Shown piece after piece: positions 42,485-62,832 of a stretch of DNA of 64,000 bases. The stretch is from an uncultured Nitrospira sp. GTDB lineage: Bacteria > Nitrospirota > Nitrospiria > Nitrospirales > Nitrospiraceae. How positions within the stretch are numbered: position 1 is the first letter of the stretch; each line of letters starts with the position of its first letter. The notes under the pieces are model-generated. The model worked only from the letters and a program-made list of their open reading frames with translations. It ran no database searches and was not told the origin of the DNA. A program made the translations under genes and the position numbers. The stretch is from contig CAYUYE010000002.1 in the NCBI GenBank assembly GCA_964449255.1, positions 250,318-314,317 on the forward strand. Reading direction: 5' to 3'.

Positions 42485-42552
42485 AGCAGCTCCAGTTGGA
42501 TCTTGAGAGGAAGGCGACCGCTCGCTTCCGGCGCCTGGCGCGGCATACCTTC
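42485..42552 (+). repeat. copy 1 of a ~68-nt intergenic direct repeat (core TCGCTTCCGGCGCCTGGCGCGGCAT)
   Basis: A 25-nt perfect core (42522-42546) plus flanking similarity matches 62764-62832 in the same orientation. Confidence 0.8.
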
Positions 42553-55210: not shown

Positions 55211-56401
55211 GTGGCTACTGAGACTCCCTCCGGCACCATCCATCTTGCAGCGCAGGGCCAGGCTCGCATTCTCGCGGGCCACCCCTGGCTGTACGAATCC
55301 GACATCGCCTCCGTTGAAGGCACGCCGCAGCCCGGTGATGTCGTGGAGGTCCTGGCCTCTCACGGCCAGTCGGTCGGTCGAGGGCTGTATAGTCCTCAAT
55401 CGAAAATCCCTGTGCGTCTGCTCACGAGAAGTCAGGAGGCCATCGGCGACACATTCTGGCGTACACGCATACAGGCTGCGGTGGCACTGCGGAAACAGGT
55501 CGTCTCAGGCACAACAGCCTATCGCCTCGTCCATGCCGACGGCGACGGGCTCCCCGGTCTGATTGTCGACCGTTACGGAGAGGTGCTCGTGATGCAATGT
55601 GTGACCGTCGGCATTAATCGGCGACGAGAGACACTGGCCGATCTGTTGTTGTCTCTCACCGGGGCGACTGCGGTCTACCTTCGCAATGATTCGCCCGCGC
55701 AGACCCGTGAGGGCCTGACGAGCGAACGCATGTTTCTCCGCGGCAGCAGCGCGACCGCGATGGAAATCCGGGAAGGTCCCGCGCGATTCATCGTGGATAT
55801 CGCAGCCGGACAGAAGACAGGGTGGTTTTGCGATCAGCGGGATAACCGCCTCGCTGTCGCGGCGATCTCCAAAGGCAAGGACGTGTTGGACGCCTTCTGT
55901 CACACGGGAGGTTTTGGTGTGCAGGCGGCTATGGCCGGCGCGCGGTCGGTGTCCGGCCTCGACGCCAGCCGCCCCGCGGTCGAGCAAGCCCGCGCCCACG
56001 CCGTCCTCAACCAGGTCTCGCCTATCTGTGATTTCCGGAGCGGCGATGCGGCCGAGGCCCTCAAAAAGCTCGGGCGTTCGCGCAAACGTTTCGATGTGGT
56101 GATTCTCGACCCACCGGCCTTCGCCAAACGCCGCTCCGTGCGGGGCTCCGCGCTAGAAGGCTACCAACATCTCAACGCCCTGGCGTTGCCGCTCATCAGA
56201 CAAGGCGGGACGCTCGTGACCTGCTCTTGCTCCCACCATGTCAGTGAAACGGATCTCTGCGCTGTCGTCGAAGCCGCCGCGCGCCGCGCCCGTCGCCGCA
56301 TCAAGATCCTCGACCGCCGCGGCGCCGGGCCCGATCATCCAATCAACCCTGACGTGCCGGAGACGCGCTACCTGACCTGTTTGCTCGTGGCTGTCTCATA
56401 A
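55211..56401 (+). CDS. rlmI: 23S rRNA m5C1962 methyltransferase RlmI-like (PUA + class I SAM MTase)
   Basis: It has GHPWLYESDI (PUA), VLDAFCHTGGFG and DVVILDPPAFAK motifs. Confidence 0.8.
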   Translation: MATETPSGTIHLAAQGQARILAGHPWLYESDIASVEGTPQPGDVVEVLASHGQSVGRGLYSPQSKIPVRLLTRSQEAIGDTFWRTRIQAAVALRKQVVSGTTAYRLVHADGDGLPGLIVDRYGEVLVMQCVTVGINRRRETLADLLLSLTGATAVYLRNDSPAQTREGLTSERMFLRGSSATAMEIREGPARFIVDIAAGQKTGWFCDQRDNRLAVAAISKGKDVLDAFCHTGGFGVQAAMAGARSVSGLDASRPAVEQARAHAVLNQVSPICDFRSGDAAEALKKLGRSRKRFDVVILDPPAFAKRRSVRGSALEGYQHLNALALPLIRQGGTLVTCSCSHHVSETDLCAVVEAAARRARRRIKILDRRGAGPDHPINPDVPETRYLTCLLVAVS

Positions 56402-56467
56402 GCGTGAACGATTGAACTGGACGCACTGGACGTCTGATCATGCTCGACCGAGCGGTGAGTCGCCGCG

Positions 56468-57364
56468 TTAGGCGTTCACCGGCTCGATGAATCTGTTGAT
56501 GACCCAGCCTTCCAGGTCGGTCTCGTCGCTGACGTCGACTTTGGTCCAGCGCGCGCCTTTTTCCAGCACAAATACTTCGGCGCGCTTGGGCAGCGGATCC
56601 CCTGCGAGGGGAAACTCGGTCCCCGGTCCCGTGCGGATGTTCAGGGCCTCCGCCACAACCCGGACGCGTTCCCGTTCGTCCGCTCGCCGCCCCAGCACTC
56701 GTGAACGGATATGTTCCAGTGGAAAGGCCGGCCCGGGGTCACGCTTGCGGTCTGGGGCCACATCTTCGTGGCCGATGACGTCGCGGAGGTCGTAGGTGTG
56801 GACGAGCAGGAGAGCCAGCTCGAGGGCACGTTGAATTTGAATCTCCGTGTAGGCGTGCCACCACTTAGGGGTCTGATCCAATCGGTGCTTGGCATGGAGT
56901 GCCTGATCGCGCGGATATTCAGCCCCGAACCAGGCTTTCAGAGTGTCGCCCTGTGCCGTGAGCGGACCCGCATTGTCCATCTCAATCCCAATCGCATGGC
57001 CGTTGAGGCCGCTCAGGCCCTCCCACTGACTCACGCCGGCGTGCCAGGTCTTGACGTTAAAGGGGGCGAGCTGGGTGATGCGACCGTCGCGGGCGATCAC
57101 GAGATGGGCGGAGGCCTGGGAAAGGGGGTTGCACAGCCAGTCGCAGGACGCCTGGGCGTTTCGCCCAGCCGTGTAGTGAAAGATCAAATAAGCGGGTGTG
57201 ATGGGCTCACCGCGGTTGGGCGTGTCGCGAAAGGTCACCCCCGGCCCCTTCAGACGATGCCGTTCAACGATATAGGGCTGGACGGATTTCAGCATCGTTC
57301 TGGAGGCCGGCCCTCCTCTCGATCTCTGTTTGGGACGTTGGCGCTTGCGGGTTGATCGGCGCAT
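56468..57364 (-). CDS. N-acetylmuramoyl-L-alanine amidase (Amidase_2/AmpD-type) with C-terminal SH3b-like domain
   Basis: It has IFHYTAG, HLVIARDG and GHEDVAPDRKRDPGPAF motifs and a C-terminal LNIRTGPGTEF...WTKV SH3b pattern. There is no signal peptide. The start is uncertain (57364 or 57295). Confidence 0.75.
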   Translation of the reverse strand: MRRSTRKRQRPKQRSRGGPASRTMLKSVQPYIVERHRLKGPGVTFRDTPNRGEPITPAYLIFHYTAGRNAQASCDWLCNPLSQASAHLVIARDGRITQLAPFNVKTWHAGVSQWEGLSGLNGHAIGIEMDNAGPLTAQGDTLKAWFGAEYPRDQALHAKHRLDQTPKWWHAYTEIQIQRALELALLLVHTYDLRDVIGHEDVAPDRKRDPGPAFPLEHIRSRVLGRRADERERVRVVAEALNIRTGPGTEFPLAGDPLPKRAEVFVLEKGARWTKVDVSDETDLEGWVINRFIEPVNA

Positions 57365-57563
57365 GGGTCAGTCCGCCTTCTTGTGTGAGATGCGATGGTG
57401 GTCGGTAATCTACTGGAGCAGTCGCAAAGCCTGTACCACCGGATTCGGCTGTCCTGGGCGGCCCAGTCGAGGAGGAAACAGCCCGATGTCATTGAAATCG
57501 CAATGGCTTGTCGGTGCTAGGACAGGGCGAACTCTTCGAAATGTATCTAATTTTTCGGCCGGC

Positions 57564-57579
57564 GTATCCAATCAGATAC
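57564..57579. promoter_or_regulatory. GTATC-N6-GATAC palindrome (operator-like), copy C
   Basis: cGTATCcaatcaGATACg lies 33 nt downstream of the transporter stop and about 185 nt upstream of the amidase start. An extra GTATC half-site sits exactly 21 nt away (57543-57547). Confidence 0.45.
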
Positions 57580-59213: not shown

Positions 59214-59250
59214 GTATCAAGCCGGATACGGAGGGTATCGGAAGGGATAC
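59214..59250. promoter_or_regulatory. two tandem GTATC-N6-GATAC palindromes, centres 21 nt apart (operator-like), copies A and B
   Basis: tGTATCaagccgGATACggaggGTATCggaaggGATACg lies in the 527-nt divergent intergenic region between the transporter gene and the nuclease gene. Confidence 0.5.
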
Positions 59251-59460
59251 GTCGAAGAAAATAGGACAGTTTCCATTTCCGCAGGATTCTGTGGAGTTTT
59301 CACTCCCCCGGCGCTGGCGGGGTCTTTGCACGTTCCCCTCTGAGTGGGTGTTGCCTCCGCGGCGGTGGGGTTCTCCAGGACGGCGACCCTTCAGGGAACG
59401 CCCCGCCATGCTCCTCAAAACTTGCACTTCCCGTCACAGGAGCCGACAGTGGAGACGGTC

Positions 59461-60399
59461 ATGCCGGTTGAACTGAGTCACATGAAAACCCTGGCTGAAT
59501 TGGCCGGGGAAGCGCAAGGGATTCTCCGAGACATGGGGCGCCTTGCGCGCGTGCCCCTCAGCAAAAAACCCCAAGATTACAGCCGGCGCAAAGGATACGC
59601 CCCGGCGTTCTTGCAACGGTTCCCCGTCCCCCGCCCGATACTGACGTGCGCCAACCGGGACGACGAAGTGCCGCTGCTCGACGGCTCGGGGACGGAACTG
59701 AAGTACGAGCATTTTTCCATAGCCATGTCCAAATCGAGGCGGCTGGCGCGGTACGTGGCCTGCAACATCGACGGCTCGCGCAGCGTGAGGATTCGTCGCG
59801 GCAAAGATACGTGGAGTCTCGATCCGCGGATCGACACACAGTATCAGTGCGGCGAAGAACTCTACGCGGACAATGAGCTGGATCGCGGTCATCTCGTCCG
59901 ACGCGAAGATGCGGTGTGGGGCGAGAAGAAAGTGGCGGCCGTGGCCAACGAAGATACGTTCCATTTTACCAATTGCGCGCCGCAACATGCGCAGTTCAAC
60001 CGAAAGATCTGGCTGGGGCTCGAGGGCTACATCCTAAAGAATTCCCGAGCGCATCAGCTCCGCGTCAATGTGTTGACGGGGCCGGTCTTTCGAGAGGATG
60101 ATCCGACCTATCGCGAGGTCCAACTGCCCCGTGAATATTGGAAGGTGGTCACGGTGGTCACGGATGGGCGCAATTCCGCCACCGCCTATATGATCAGCCA
60201 ATCCGAGCTGCTTGAGCGTCTCCGCGCGTTCGGGTTTGGCACGTACAAGACCTATCAAGTCAGCATTGCCCACGTCGAATCCCTCACCGGCCTCGATTTT
60301 GGAACCTTACGAAACTACGATGGCTTCTCAACCCAAGAACGCCGAGTTGCGGGCCCGATGCGAACGGAGATCCGATCTTGGCGCGACATTCGGATCTGA
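59461..60399 (+). CDS. DNA/RNA non-specific endonuclease (beta-beta-alpha-Me, Endonuclease_NS family), no signal peptide
   Basis: It has the LDRGHLVRRED (DRGH) motif and downstream TNCAPQHAQFN Asn. A GTGGAG RBS-like element precedes ATG 59461, and the N-terminus is hydrophilic. Confidence 0.8.
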   Translation: MPVELSHMKTLAELAGEAQGILRDMGRLARVPLSKKPQDYSRRKGYAPAFLQRFPVPRPILTCANRDDEVPLLDGSGTELKYEHFSIAMSKSRRLARYVACNIDGSRSVRIRRGKDTWSLDPRIDTQYQCGEELYADNELDRGHLVRREDAVWGEKKVAAVANEDTFHFTNCAPQHAQFNRKIWLGLEGYILKNSRAHQLRVNVLTGPVFREDDPTYREVQLPREYWKVVTVVTDGRNSATAYMISQSELLERLRAFGFGTYKTYQVSIAHVESLTGLDFGTLRNYDGFSTQERRVAGPMRTEIRSWRDIRI

Positions 60400-60468
60400 C
60401 ATCTGACAGGAGCGGTCCGATGACGCGCACGTCTTGTTACCCCCACCTCACACCTCACGGAGGATACG

Positions 60469-62592
60469 ATGCCTGAAACAACTCAGGTCCGCCTTGGCAA
60501 GAAGAGTGAACCAGGGATCACGCTCCGCAAGAGTGACGACTTGATTGCGGTGCGTACCCGTTCCACACGATCGATCAGGACAGGGGCGGTGCGTACGCCC
60601 GAGTCCGGGGAGGTAGCGGATGGGTTTCTCGTGTTCGCCATCCCGGATGCCGGGGTCGAGGTGTATCGCGTGCCGCCCGGAGCGGGTCGGCGGTCGCTGG
60701 AGGGGCGTAAATCGGCGCTTCGTGCGGCCCCGGACGTCCGTTTTGCCGGCGGTGTCATGGTCGATGACAAGTCCGGCGAACCGGTGCTTTACACCGAGAA
60801 TCTATTCATCAAGTTCGTCGATGACGCCGATCCGGAAGACTGCCGCGCCGTCATTCGAGACGCCGGCCTCACGATCAAGAAGGAGCTGACGTACGCGACG
60901 AATTCGTTTTTCGTCGGGGCGCCTGAGGGGACGGGCACGAGAGTGTTCGAGATGGCCGCCTCGCTCTTGAATCGAAAGGACGTCGAGTATTGCCATCCGG
61001 AACTCGTCCGTCCGAAAGCGCGTCGTCAGATCGCAGCGGAGCAATGGCACTTGAAAACGACAACGATCAACGGCACGCCTGTCGCCGCGAGCGCGAACGT
61101 CGAGGCGGCGCATCAAATAACGATGGGAGAGGGGGCCACGATCGCCGTCATCGATGACGGGGTGGACGTCGATCATCCGGAGTTTGCCGGGGCGGGCAAG
61201 ATTGTGGCGCCGCGGGACGCCACGCTTGGCACTGGCGATCCACGTCCGAAGGATGCGGGTTTCGAGGAAAATCACGGCACCGCCTGTGCGGGGGTGGCCT
61301 GTGCCGCGGGGACCGAAAAGGCATCGGGCGTCGCGCCCAAGGCCAAGCTGATCCCCATTCGACTCAACTCGGCGCTCGGCTCCCAGCAGGAGGCGGAGGC
61401 GTTCGAGTGGGCGGCCAACCACGGCGCCGACGTGATTTCGTGCAGCTGGGGCCCGCAAGACGGGGCGTGGTTTAACCTCAACGATCCGGCGCACAACCAA
61501 AAGGTGCCGATCCCGGCCAGCACTCGTTTGGCGATCGACTATGCGACGACCAAGGGTCGCAACGGCAAGGGATGCATCGTGCTGTTTGCCGCCGGGAACG
61601 GCAACGAAAGCGTCGACAACGACGGCTATGCCAGTTACGAGCGGGTCATCGCCGTGGCCGCCTGTAACGATCGGAGCAAGCGCAGCGTCTATAGCGACTT
61701 CGGCAAGGCCATCTGGTGCGCCTTCCCGAGCAGCGACATGGGGCACTCGCCGTTTCAGCATCCGGCGCCCCTGACAGCGGGGATTTGGACGACCGACCGC
61801 ACCGGCTCCCCCGGCTATAACTCCGGCAAGTCTTCTGAGGGCGACACCCGCGGCAACTACACGAATAGTTTCGGCGGCACCTCCAGCGCCTGCCCTGGTG
61901 CGGCAGGGGTGGCGGCGTTGGTCCTGTCGGTGAATCCCACGCTCAAATGGCAGGAGGTGCGGGACATTCTCAAGCAGTCCTGCGACAAGATCGATCCACA
62001 GGGCGGCAACTACACGGCCGAGGGCTGGAGTCGGTTCTACGGCTACGGGCGGTTGAACGCCGAGACGGCGGTGAAACTCGCGAAGCCGTCGACCAACAAC
62101 CGTGTCTTGATCAGCCGCACATTCAACGAACCGGTTCCGGACCTCCAGACCGTCACGGTATCGCTCGACGTCAACGATGCGACCGTGGTGGAGAATCTGA
62201 TCGTGCATTTGGATCTGGAGCACACCTACATTGGTGATCTGATCGTGACACTCATGCCGCCGTCCGGGTTGGCGCCGGCGAAAGTCACGTTGCACAATCG
62301 CGCGGGCGGCGCCGCGCAGAACATCAAACGGTCCTATGACATGCTGGATACGACCGCGCTCGCTGCCTTCAAGGGCAAAAACCTCAAGGGGACTTGGACC
62401 CTCAAGATCCAAGATGCGGAGGCACGGGACGAAGGCACGCTGAAGCAATTTGGGCTCGAATTGGTGTTCGGATCGGGCGGGATGCGTATGGAGGGTGCGC
62501 CAGGCAATGGGACCGGCGCGCGGACCAGACGCGTGGCCGGAGGCCGTGCAAGAACGACTGCGGGGCGGCGTCGGACGGCCCGTCAGAGCTAA
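60469..62592 (+). CDS. S8-family subtilisin/kexin-like serine protease with proprotein-convertase P-domain, no signal peptide
   Basis: The catalytic motifs are AVIDDGVD (Asp), HGTACAG (His) and GGTSSACPGAAG (Ser). The P-domain pattern is HTYIGDLIVTLMPPSG ... LKGTWTLKIQD. It also has a ~190-aa N-terminal pro-like region and an Arg-rich C-terminal tail. Confidence 0.85.
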   Translation: MPETTQVRLGKKSEPGITLRKSDDLIAVRTRSTRSIRTGAVRTPESGEVADGFLVFAIPDAGVEVYRVPPGAGRRSLEGRKSALRAAPDVRFAGGVMVDDKSGEPVLYTENLFIKFVDDADPEDCRAVIRDAGLTIKKELTYATNSFFVGAPEGTGTRVFEMAASLLNRKDVEYCHPELVRPKARRQIAAEQWHLKTTTINGTPVAASANVEAAHQITMGEGATIAVIDDGVDVDHPEFAGAGKIVAPRDATLGTGDPRPKDAGFEENHGTACAGVACAAGTEKASGVAPKAKLIPIRLNSALGSQQEAEAFEWAANHGADVISCSWGPQDGAWFNLNDPAHNQKVPIPASTRLAIDYATTKGRNGKGCIVLFAAGNGNESVDNDGYASYERVIAVAACNDRSKRSVYSDFGKAIWCAFPSSDMGHSPFQHPAPLTAGIWTTDRTGSPGYNSGKSSEGDTRGNYTNSFGGTSSACPGAAGVAALVLSVNPTLKWQEVRDILKQSCDKIDPQGGNYTAEGWSRFYGYGRLNAETAVKLAKPSTNNRVLISRTFNEPVPDLQTVTVSLDVNDATVVENLIVHLDLEHTYIGDLIVTLMPPSGLAPAKVTLHNRAGGAAQNIKRSYDMLDTTALAAFKGKNLKGTWTLKIQDAEARDEGTLKQFGLELVFGSGGMRMEGAPGNGTGARTRRVAGGRARTTAGRRRTARQS

Positions 62593-62763
62593 CGAGCTGA
62601 TGGATCCTGTGCGGCGGGAGTGAGTTTCACAGAATGAGGCCACCCGAATCACGGCGGCCTCATCCTGGACAAAAGGCGCAGACGAGAGCCTATCTCAGGA
62701 TAGTGAGAGTCAATTCGATCGTGACCTGTGACTGCGTGACCTCCTGGCGGCTGACAGAGAGCA

Positions 62764-62832
62764 AGCAGCTCAGGCTAGGTCATAGGGAGGAATGCGACCC
62801 ATCGCTTCCGGCGCCTGGCGCGGCATCCCTTC
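62764..62832 (+). repeat. copy 2 of the ~68-nt intergenic direct repeat
   Basis: The core TCGCTTCCGGCGCCTGGCGCGGCAT at 62802-62826 is identical to 42522-42546, and the flanks are similar (AGCAGCTC...GAGGAA.GCGACC). Confidence 0.8.

Follow-up and report, generated by a model that had tools for sequence, protein, structure and literature searches.

A NucA-type nuclease and a kexin/furin-type S8 protease, both leaderless, in a candidate sigma-54-controlled cassette of Nitrospira

In a 64 kb stretch of DNA from an uncultured Nitrospira, termed the window below, the gene of a leaderless non-specific nuclease is directly followed by the gene of a leaderless subtilisin-type protease. We tentatively propose that both are parts of a sigma-54-switched cassette in which the protease would activate a cytoplasmic NucA nuclease as a suicide or defence effector; for this reading as a whole we put the chances slightly below even. 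It is carried by the gene structures and families, the intact active sites, the lack of export signals, the operon architecture, conserved regulatory motifs and a clade-wide linkage of such nucleases to proteases. The cassette looks like a lineage-specific version of protease-armed nuclease modules which have been predicted for suicide or defence, and not like a new category. All coordinates are window positions; labels of the form Lnnn denote the homologous loci used for comparison.

Two leaderless hydrolases in a putative operon

The core of the cassette consists of three elements:

59449–60399, plus strand: leaderless NucA/EndoG-type non-specific nuclease, 316 aa from GTG 59449 or 312 aa from ATG 59461
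60400–60468, plus strand: intergenic spacer of 69 nt with the Shine-Dalgarno sequence GGAGGA at 60459–60464, without terminator
60469–62592, plus strand: leaderless kexin/furin-type S8 protease, 707 aa, assigned by Pfam and PDB matches and by alignment

An earlier annotation of this DNA, the original prediction, had described two co-directional genes 69 nt apart, which is correct. It had started the nuclease at ATG 59461, i.e., four codons inside the frame opened by GTG 59449. The GTG is the likely start because AGGAG is located 6 nt upstream and the resulting 316 aa equal the length of every Nitrospira nuclease homologue. The strong Shine-Dalgarno sequence GGAGGA is positioned 4 nt ahead of the protease ATG, and examination of the 69 nt spacer revealed no terminator. 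In all related loci the spacer measures 63–77 nt and the Shine-Dalgarno sequence is conserved; sequence conservation starts exactly at both start codons. On these grounds the two genes are well supported as a functional unit, a presumably co-transcribed operon.

The nuclease matches the Endonuclease_NS family PF01223 with E = 3.8e-52 (177.6 bits versus a cut-off of 23; residues 75–282 of the 312 aa form). The DRGH signature seen originally contains the catalytic His; the Mg-binding Asn and the conserved Glu are also present. The respective motifs, LDRGHLV, FTNCAPQ and WLGLE, are invariant in nuclease alignments of 78 and of 10 sequences. The nearest solved relatives by sequence and fold are Anabaena NucA, EndoG, EXOG and the Serratia nuclease, and NucA is the closest by sequence (1ZM8/2O3B, E about 1e-8). 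An AlphaFold2 (AF2) model has a mean predicted local distance difference test score (pLDDT) of 85. Foldseek aligned it with CPS-6, EndoG, Serratia nuclease and NucA at a probability of 1.0 and target-normalised template modelling (TM) scores of 0.65–0.72. The protein is laid out as an invariant N-terminal helix, EL..MK.L.EL, a variable linker (residues ~19–43) and the catalytic core. Two segments of the model, residues 1–30 and 253–261, are of low confidence and are candidates for an unmasking cleavage. The triplet RRK at residues 41–43 (312 aa form) was considered as a kexin site in the N-terminus and discarded; it is missing from the homologues.

The protease was originally described as an S8 enzyme with an intact Asp/His/Ser triad and a P-domain. 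This is borne out by matches to PF00082 (E = 2e-47) and to the P-domain PF01483 (E = 8e-16). D229, H269, S472 and the oxyanion Asn377 are invariant in 14 homologues, as are the motifs VIDDG, HGTACAG, AAGNGN and GGTSSACP. Among PDB entries, kexin and furin match best, and the furin alignment extends through the P-domain. The parts of the protein are:

residues 1–100: N-terminal region
residues 105–180: predicted I9-like prodomain, with a putative end at KARR187
residues ~220–527: catalytic domain
residues 574–664: P-domain
residues 669–707: basic, disordered tail

The pro-like N-terminal region of about 190 aa and the Arg-rich tail, both noted at the outset, correspond to the initial ~187 aa with the predicted prodomain and to residues 669–707, respectively. 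Residues 105–180 are modelled as a beta-alpha-beta-beta-alpha-beta fold with a pLDDT of 80–94. The predicted prodomain would end ...VRPKARR|QIAAEQWHL, just ahead of a furin-like QQWHL motif, which in the homologue consensus is preceded by RxRxRR. An AF2 model of the whole protease from the alignment of 14 sequences was poor (pLDDT 53.6). The protease family is 55–70% identical over the full length in Cyanobacteria, Acidobacteriota, Planctomycetota, Proteobacteria, Verrucomicrobiota and Actinomycetes.

With pro-region, S8 domain and P-domain the window protease appears to share the whole-length architecture of the calcium-dependent protease PrcA (alr1381) of Anabaena/Nostoc. It is ~54% identical to 662 aa Nostocales proteins which have a small divergent neighbour resembling all1380. 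The pair alr1381/all1380 is the annotated calcium-dependent protease locus (PMC4390845, PMC3610870), and the Nostocales homologues appear to correspond to it by the same divergent neighbour. Databases name members of this cluster only 'S8 family peptidase', and PrcA is a candidate identity. Unlike the window, the Nostocales genes have no adjacent nuclease gene, they possess a stand-alone prodomain paralogue instead, and the basic tail is missing.

A divergent neighbour of the all1380 type, ~190 aa long, accompanies PrcA-type proteases in Nostocales, Pyrinomonadaceae and one proteobacterial locus (L046, L050–L080; e.g., L052:6965–7540, minus strand). It is a paralogue of the protease prodomain (pairwise E = 1e-5), and its C-terminus is basic (...MERGLR) as in a cleaved prodomain. 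On account of these two properties the stand-alone protein probably inhibits the protease or serves as its chaperone.

Classically, bacterial Endonuclease_NS enzymes act outside the cell, and the same holds for kexin-type proteases. The window nuclease has neither the export signal nor the dedicated inhibitor which are typical of bacterial members of its family, and the protease shows no sign of the secretory-pathway location characteristic of kexin/furin-type S8B enzymes. The original statement that both proteins are leaderless is upheld: neither nuclease start (59449, 59461) yields a signal peptide, a Tat motif is absent, and among ~80 nuclease homologues no hydrophobic N-terminal segment was detected (maximum 12-residue Kyte-Doolittle mean <1.7). 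Likewise, 14 protease homologues from many phyla have no hydrophobic N-terminus, and their hydrophilic conservation begins at Met1. No recognisable C-terminal secretion domain exists in either family across many phyla. The reported lack of a visible inhibitor gene is equally correct: at the cassette and at related loci we found no NuiA-like gene and no conserved small ORF for an inhibitor or immunity protein.

One might nevertheless envisage a non-classical export via vesicles, lysis or an unrecognised signal and an extracellular action, e.g., in nutrient acquisition or turnover of a biofilm matrix. The classical location of both enzyme types would agree with it. So would the detection of Alr1381 and of its divergent neighbour All1380 in the Anabaena exoproteome; however, the same exoproteome held many cytoplasmic proteins (PMC4390845). 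Further, the uniform lack of secretion signals in both families speaks against export, and an intracellular role of the nuclease is indicated because its clade is fused to cytoplasmic-type STAND and TPR modules. Export is very improbable. A search of viral contigs returned a single nuclease match and no protease match.

Promoter, palindromes and a possible regulon

Upstream of the nuclease gene three regulatory elements were identified:

59214–59229, no strand assigned: palindrome GTATCAAGCCGGATAC of the pattern GTATC-N6-GATAC, first of two tandem candidate enhancer sites (upstream activating sequences) for a sigma-54 activator
59235–59250, no strand assigned: second palindrome GTATCGGAAGGGATAC of the same pattern
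59315–59330, plus strand: sigma-54 type −24/−12 promoter TGGCGGGGTCTTTGCA (TGGC-N7-TTGC) with conserved consensus and correct spacing

The pattern GTATC-N6-GATAC occurs three times in the window versus zero expected, and TGGC-N7-TTGC has a single match there. Conservation of the −24/−12 element is striking: TGGC-N7-TTGC precedes the nuclease gene in every related locus, and in an intergenic alignment of six loci, otherwise 47% identical, the TGGC and TTGC columns are invariant. In the cassette loci one or two palindromes are positioned ~65–100 nt upstream of it. The palindrome is kept at the same place in L001, L002, L003, L161, L172, L173, L175 and L176. The window contains no gene for an enhancer-binding activator of the GAFTGA type.

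The same kind of elements recurs at a nearby gene on the opposite strand:

57564–57579, no strand assigned: third palindrome GTATCCAATCAGATAC of the same pattern, upstream of the amidase gene
57423–57438, minus strand: sigma-54-like element TGGTACaggctTTGCg, ~60 nt upstream of the amidase start, tentative in view of one consensus mismatch
56468–57364, minus strand: AmpD-like protein with Amidase_2 and SH3_3 domains, assigned by domain matches, without signal peptide

A small regulon is suggested because the third palindrome and the sigma-54-like element precede the amidase gene. L176 has a palindrome identical to that of the amidase, and L081 has a related one; in L001 and L165 the amidase gene is preceded by TGGTAC-N5-TTGC elements similar to the one in the window. 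Judging from these motifs the AmpD-like amidase is probably in the same regulon as the cassette, an association which we regard as tentative.

In another Nitrospira locus (L172:837–2451) a multi-pass membrane protein and an Amidase_2+PG_binding_1 protein are encoded directly upstream of the cassette, after a pYEATS gene, in a holin/endolysin-like arrangement. Here the cassette is associated with a peptidoglycan amidase for a second time, independently and with a different Amidase_2 protein.

A common regulation with an amidase invites a more prosaic explanation, i.e., a sigma-54 regulon of the type which responds to nutrient or nitrogen limitation. It would comprise co-regulated hydrolases for salvage or turnover, namely an AmpD-like muropeptide amidase, an intracellular nuclease for RNA/DNA turnover and a general PrcA-type protease for protein turnover, with no zymogen relation between them. 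Nuclease and protease would then form an operon simply because both are required simultaneously. The shared palindrome and the sigma-54-like element ahead of the amidase gene agree with it, as does the correspondence of the Nostocales homologues to the annotated calcium-dependent protease locus (PMC4390845, PMC3610870). On the other hand, a nuclease which attacks DNA and RNA non-specifically endangers the cell when it is free in the cytoplasm, and the neighbouring transporter of the major facilitator superfamily (MFS) is not recognisably AmpG. On balance we view a salvage regulon as possible, yet rather unlikely; further evidence on both of its sides follows below.

Conservation within Nitrospira and relatives of the nuclease

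The intact pair was found in nine distinct Nitrospira-like loci, the window, L001, L002, L003, L161, L172, L173/174, L175 and L177/178. Each of them (L173 and L177 standing for the two double entries) possesses intact nuclease and protease genes, one or two palindromes and TGGC-N7-TTGC. L161 carries the nuclease of Nitrospira tepida, a cultured relative which holds the cassette. The nucleases of these loci have diverged to 65–70% identity. Four different neighbourhoods can be distinguished:

neighbourhood 1, that of the window: AmpD-like amidase, MFS/TLC transporter, cassette; in other genomes BON, MFS_3 and glycogen-debranching genes
neighbourhood 2, L172: pYEATS, membrane protein, Amidase_2+PG_binding_1
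neighbourhood 3, L173: IS200 transposase, PIN, patatin
neighbourhood 4, L177: glyoxalase, acetyltransferase

The original prediction had asked for co-occurrence across unrelated genomes; in the 80 protease and 80 nuclease loci compared (see below) the pair is confined to Nitrospiraceae. The sites next to an IS200 transposase, PIN and patatin genes and next to pYEATS genes speak against a salvage regulon.

Could the adjacency be fortuitous, i.e., were the two genes joined once in a Nitrospira ancestor and since inherited together with no functional link? The confinement to one lineage and the existence of both single-gene states would be expected in this case. Against it, pair, promoter and candidate enhancer have been kept in four neighbourhoods, and spacer length and Shine-Dalgarno sequence are conserved in spite of the divergence of the nucleases. 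Moreover, a protease as a chance neighbour is unlikely because the nuclease clade has been linked to proteases independently and repeatedly. We attach hardly any probability to mere adjacency.

The latter point emerges from a comparison of nuclease relatives. In 80 metagenomic nuclease loci a trypsin-like, S8 or M4 peptidase domain is fused to the nuclease or encoded within 3 kb in 43 instances (38 of the 57 with at least 3 kb of flank); the control gave one match in 945 kb of flanks. The protease queries of this test came from the foreground loci, which biases the control, and for this reason the ~100-fold enrichment is an upper estimate. According to Pfam the clade comprises a variety of architectures: an S8+Trypsin_2 protein (948 aa), nuclease and TPR-S+Trypsin_2 in a row; Trypsin_2-nuclease fusions of 600–660 aa (>4000 clusters); nuclease, S8 and trypsin; Trypsin-AAA, STAND and nuclease on the Polaromonas conjugative plasmid pPNAP01 (L168), with an NLR-like ATPase reminiscent of LypAB; and an alpha/beta-hydrolase-CHAT protein, SIR2 and nuclease on a Rhizobium leguminosarum plasmid (L170). 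Astacin or M12/M14 peptidases are further neighbours. Such conflict-type settings with STAND, TIR, SIR2, CHAT and TPR-S would be odd company for a salvage enzyme.

The window nuclease is 45–57% identical to the nucleases of the S8+trypsin/nuclease/TPR-S-trypsin cassettes and of the trypsin-nuclease fusions. In a neighbour-joining tree the Nitrospira nucleases nest beside the TPR-S-trypsin-linked ones, and both share an N-terminal amphipathic motif (EL..MK.L.EL in Nitrospira, RPRLADL elsewhere). Identity and tree position thus place the window nuclease in the clade of NucA nucleases which is associated with proteases. A PrcA-type protease, which in other phyla stands alone, appears to have taken the place of the usual trypsin-type partner in Nitrospira.

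In one homologous locus (L118:80–4498) the nuclease figures as the apparent effector next to a TPR-S-trypsin and a TIR-STAND protein.

Known systems and the case for proteolytic activation

The closest described relative is 'System 3', the NucA-peptidase conflict system predicted computationally by Kaur, Burroughs, Iyer and Aravind (eLife 2020, PMC7159879). At its core are NucA and a trypsin, occasionally an S8 protease, and a proteolytic deployment of the nuclease in conflict was proposed. The Nitrospira cassette agrees with it in having a leaderless NucA/Endonuclease_NS core of the same clade coupled to a serine peptidase. It differs in the partner, which is not trypsin-like and instead a kexin/furin-type S8 protease with P-domain, and in its occurrence: the predicted system is mainly alphaproteobacterial, the window cassette belongs to Nitrospirota and is under a sigma-54 promoter. 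EAD1, STAND and Death-like components, optional in that description, are lacking in the cassette and its flanks.

The only experimentally studied case of such a protease-nuclease coupling which we found is LypC of Caulobacter crescentus, a trypsin-endonuclease fusion in the CARD-NLR-like lysis system LypABC (Nat Microbiol 2026, PMC13236601). The likeness is one of architecture: LypC (662 aa) combines a trypsin-like peptidase with a NucA-type endonuclease like many homologues of the window nuclease, e.g., L128, also 662 aa. Unlike the window pair it is a fusion, uses trypsin and not S8, and depends on a CARD-protease and an NLR-like ATPase. An attempt to tie the trypsin-nuclease fusions to Caulobacter LypC by name was given up; the top 120 matches were mostly actinobacterial or unnamed.

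Experimental proof of nucleases gated by a protease exists only for an unrelated fold, that of metallo-beta-lactamases (MBL). There, site-specific cleavage by a neighbouring protease unmasks the pro-nuclease (Tuck et al., Science 2025, PMC12799240). The MBL pro-nucleases are paired with trypsin, caspase or S8 proteases (PMC12799240, PMC12642450), and S8-linked MBL clades exist (PMC12642450). As in the Nitrospira cassette, the nuclease gene is usually located upstream of the protease gene; the concept of an inactive cytoplasmic nuclease next to its protease may apply here too. The differences are evident: the window nuclease has the beta-beta-alpha-Me fold of Endonuclease_NS, and in the gated MBL modules a sensor (Hachiman, Avs and others) controls the protease or forms a fusion with it; the window cassette has no such sensor.

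Two further systems were compared. Anabaena NucA shares the catalytic motifs; however, it is secreted and neutralised in the cell by NuiA, whereas the window nuclease has no signal peptide and no inhibitor gene. IetAS, reportedly described by Gao and colleagues in 2020, is said to place an S8 protease in a defence context. The analogy to it drawn originally does not hold beyond generic S8 similarity: a PADLOC 'subtilase' model (PDLC03014) gave a weak partial match (E = 3.5e-15), and an IetA-like ATPase gene is absent from the window cassette. Our search of the literature turned up neither a NucA nuclease that is paired with a kexin/PrcA-type protease nor a module of this kind under sigma-54 control.

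How might the cassette operate? The operon would be silent until an enhancer-binding protein, responding to a suitable signal, activates the sigma-54 promoter; due to this silence a non-specific cytoplasmic nuclease without inhibitor gene could be tolerated. Upon induction both proteins would be made in the cytoplasm and stay there. The protease may mature itself by a cut of the prodomain after KARR; like kexin and furin it is probably Ca2+-dependent and specific for Arg/Lys. It would then process the nuclease, possibly in the flexible N-terminal segment behind the EL..MK.L.EL helix. The released nuclease would degrade nucleic acids and act as a suicide, abortive-infection or stress-lysis effector, and the co-regulated amidase may act alongside. 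The gating step itself, i.e., proteolytic activation of the nuclease by the protease, is plausible at even chances or somewhat lower.

The idea of a toxic nuclease released by proteolysis, already put forward in the original prediction, thus draws on the leaderless operon, the protease-linked clade and the logic of the NucA-peptidase system (PMC7159879). Several observations weigh against it. No sensor (STAND, TPR-S, CARD) is encoded in the cassette and no trypsin-like ORF exists in the window. The N-terminal helix of the nuclease has only low confidence in the AF2 model and no confidently occluding segment was found in the nuclease. The homologue alignment shows no conserved dibasic site in the variable N-terminal linker, and in the alignment of 10 sequences no residues separate protease-linked from protease-less nucleases. 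For LypC it was reported that lysis requires the peptidase activity and that the catalytic residues of the nuclease are dispensable (PMC13236601). Co-regulation with the amidase would be explained just as well by a regulon for turnover or salvage. For the most part the cassette is surrounded by conserved chromosome and not by a classic defence island, at variance with the siting first considered.

The distribution of the two genes points in the same direction. The pair is absent outside Nitrospiraceae in 80 protease loci from genomes and 80 nuclease loci from metagenomes: the nuclease adjoins the protease in three of the 80 protease loci, all from Nitrospiraceae, and in none of the other 77; conversely, the window-type protease occurs in none of the 80 nuclease loci. 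No neighbour is conserved across the protease loci outside Nitrospiraceae. The annotated upstream genes there encode ATP synthase gamma, a GMC oxidoreductase, a DEAD-box helicase, a beta-lactamase, a hydroxyacyl-CoA dehydrogenase, a TonB receptor and the like. This stand-alone, widely conserved protease with housekeeping neighbours would suit a salvage regulon. Within Nitrospira, L081 and L165 have a nuclease gene with the promoter and intact catalytic residues and no adjacent protease gene, its position being occupied by phosphoglucomutase. In L176 (GCA_964386815.1, CAYLUM010000016.1, 1884–8804), the closest relative of the window organism at ~87–90% DNA identity, ~760 nt of the nuclease gene are deleted; a remnant of residues 238–312, the promoter and the palindromes are kept. 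Its protease is intact (96% identity) and partly duplicated; behind the second copy there is an SRA-HNH nuclease gene. Such single-gene states would fit the decay of a dispensable module and suggest that nuclease and protease are not obligatorily interdependent; the persistence of each gene alone is also in line with salvage.

A pattern of variable effectors upstream of the protease in other phyla, i.e., a general defence protease, was considered as well. It was rejected because the neighbours there are unrelated housekeeping genes.

The single-gene loci also bear on a reversal of roles, in which the protease is a negative, antitoxin-like regulator that degrades or restrains the nuclease, and its loss unleashes the latter. 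Adjacency, co-transcription and the lack of a separate inhibitor gene could be read in this manner. Such a role is disfavoured because the nuclease-only genomes, L081 and L165, retain intact catalytic residues, and thus an apparently functional nuclease, under the same promoter. Furthermore, the nuclease-first order and a kexin-type processing specificity fit activation better than degradation. Accordingly, the probability of an antitoxin-like protease is very low.

Proteolytic activation can be elaborated into a suicide module with two gates, serving a nitrifier. Infection or a catastrophe of envelope or nutrients would be sensed by a sigma-54 activator, which would induce the operon together with the AmpD-like amidase, and a calcium-dependent furin-like protease would mature the NucA pro-nuclease. 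In this full form the proposal is clearly unlikely. If true, it would provide a first defined substrate for the enigmatic pan-bacterial PrcA protease family, it would imply programmed cell death in Nitrospira biofilms, and it would mean that a protease of housekeeping type was captured in place of trypsin.

Protease-armed effectors are emerging as a general design of bacterial immunity, and their NucA-type version is so far a prediction which nobody has dissected. The cassette is a minimal system with respect to the question of a beta-beta-alpha-Me zymogen: it has no sensor fusion, a simple promoter and with Nitrospira tepida a cultured host relative. Being minimal and present in a cultured organism it merits experiments. 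It offers a candidate substrate for widely conserved, functionally obscure cytoplasmic proteases of the PrcA/kexin type and points to sigma-54/enhancer control as a means to keep a cytoplasmic non-specific nuclease safe. Should activation by the protease be correct, it would bear on phage resistance and biofilm cell lysis in Nitrospira, a key nitrifier of wastewater and soils; a salvage regulon would be of modest, organism-specific interest.

Some observations on the surroundings remain. The original prediction saw the cassette in an accessory-looking end of the window beside repeats, a description which holds only in part. On the upstream side the rlmI-like methyltransferase, amidase and MFS genes belong to a synteny conserved in Nitrospira, and only the 1.4 kb downstream of the protease gene is unique, without counterpart in related Nitrospira loci. 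GC is lower downstream of the protease (0.56 in the last kb). Repeats of at least 14 nt were not found in this region, and the adjoining repeats are not confirmed. Positions 62764–62832 and 42485–42552 share a segment of 69 nt with 82.6% identity. No tRNA genes were detected between 50 and 64 kb of the window, and an Rfam search gave nothing above noise.

In other Nitrospira genomes a short gap separates the rlmI-like methyltransferase from the amidase and serves as a slot of variable content (L161:1–4286, L165:1171–4120; in the window ~56401–56468). Either TIR_2 and DUF4062 genes occupy it, as in the N. tepida type, or genes for a caspase-like Peptidase_C14 and a patatin do; in the window it is empty (66 nt). 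Lastly, an antisense ORF of 616 aa (60802–62652, minus strand) overlaps nearly the whole protease gene, and further antisense ORFs of 60–390 aa extend across the MFS and nuclease genes. Spurious open frames of this kind are usual in high-GC DNA; they are not genes.

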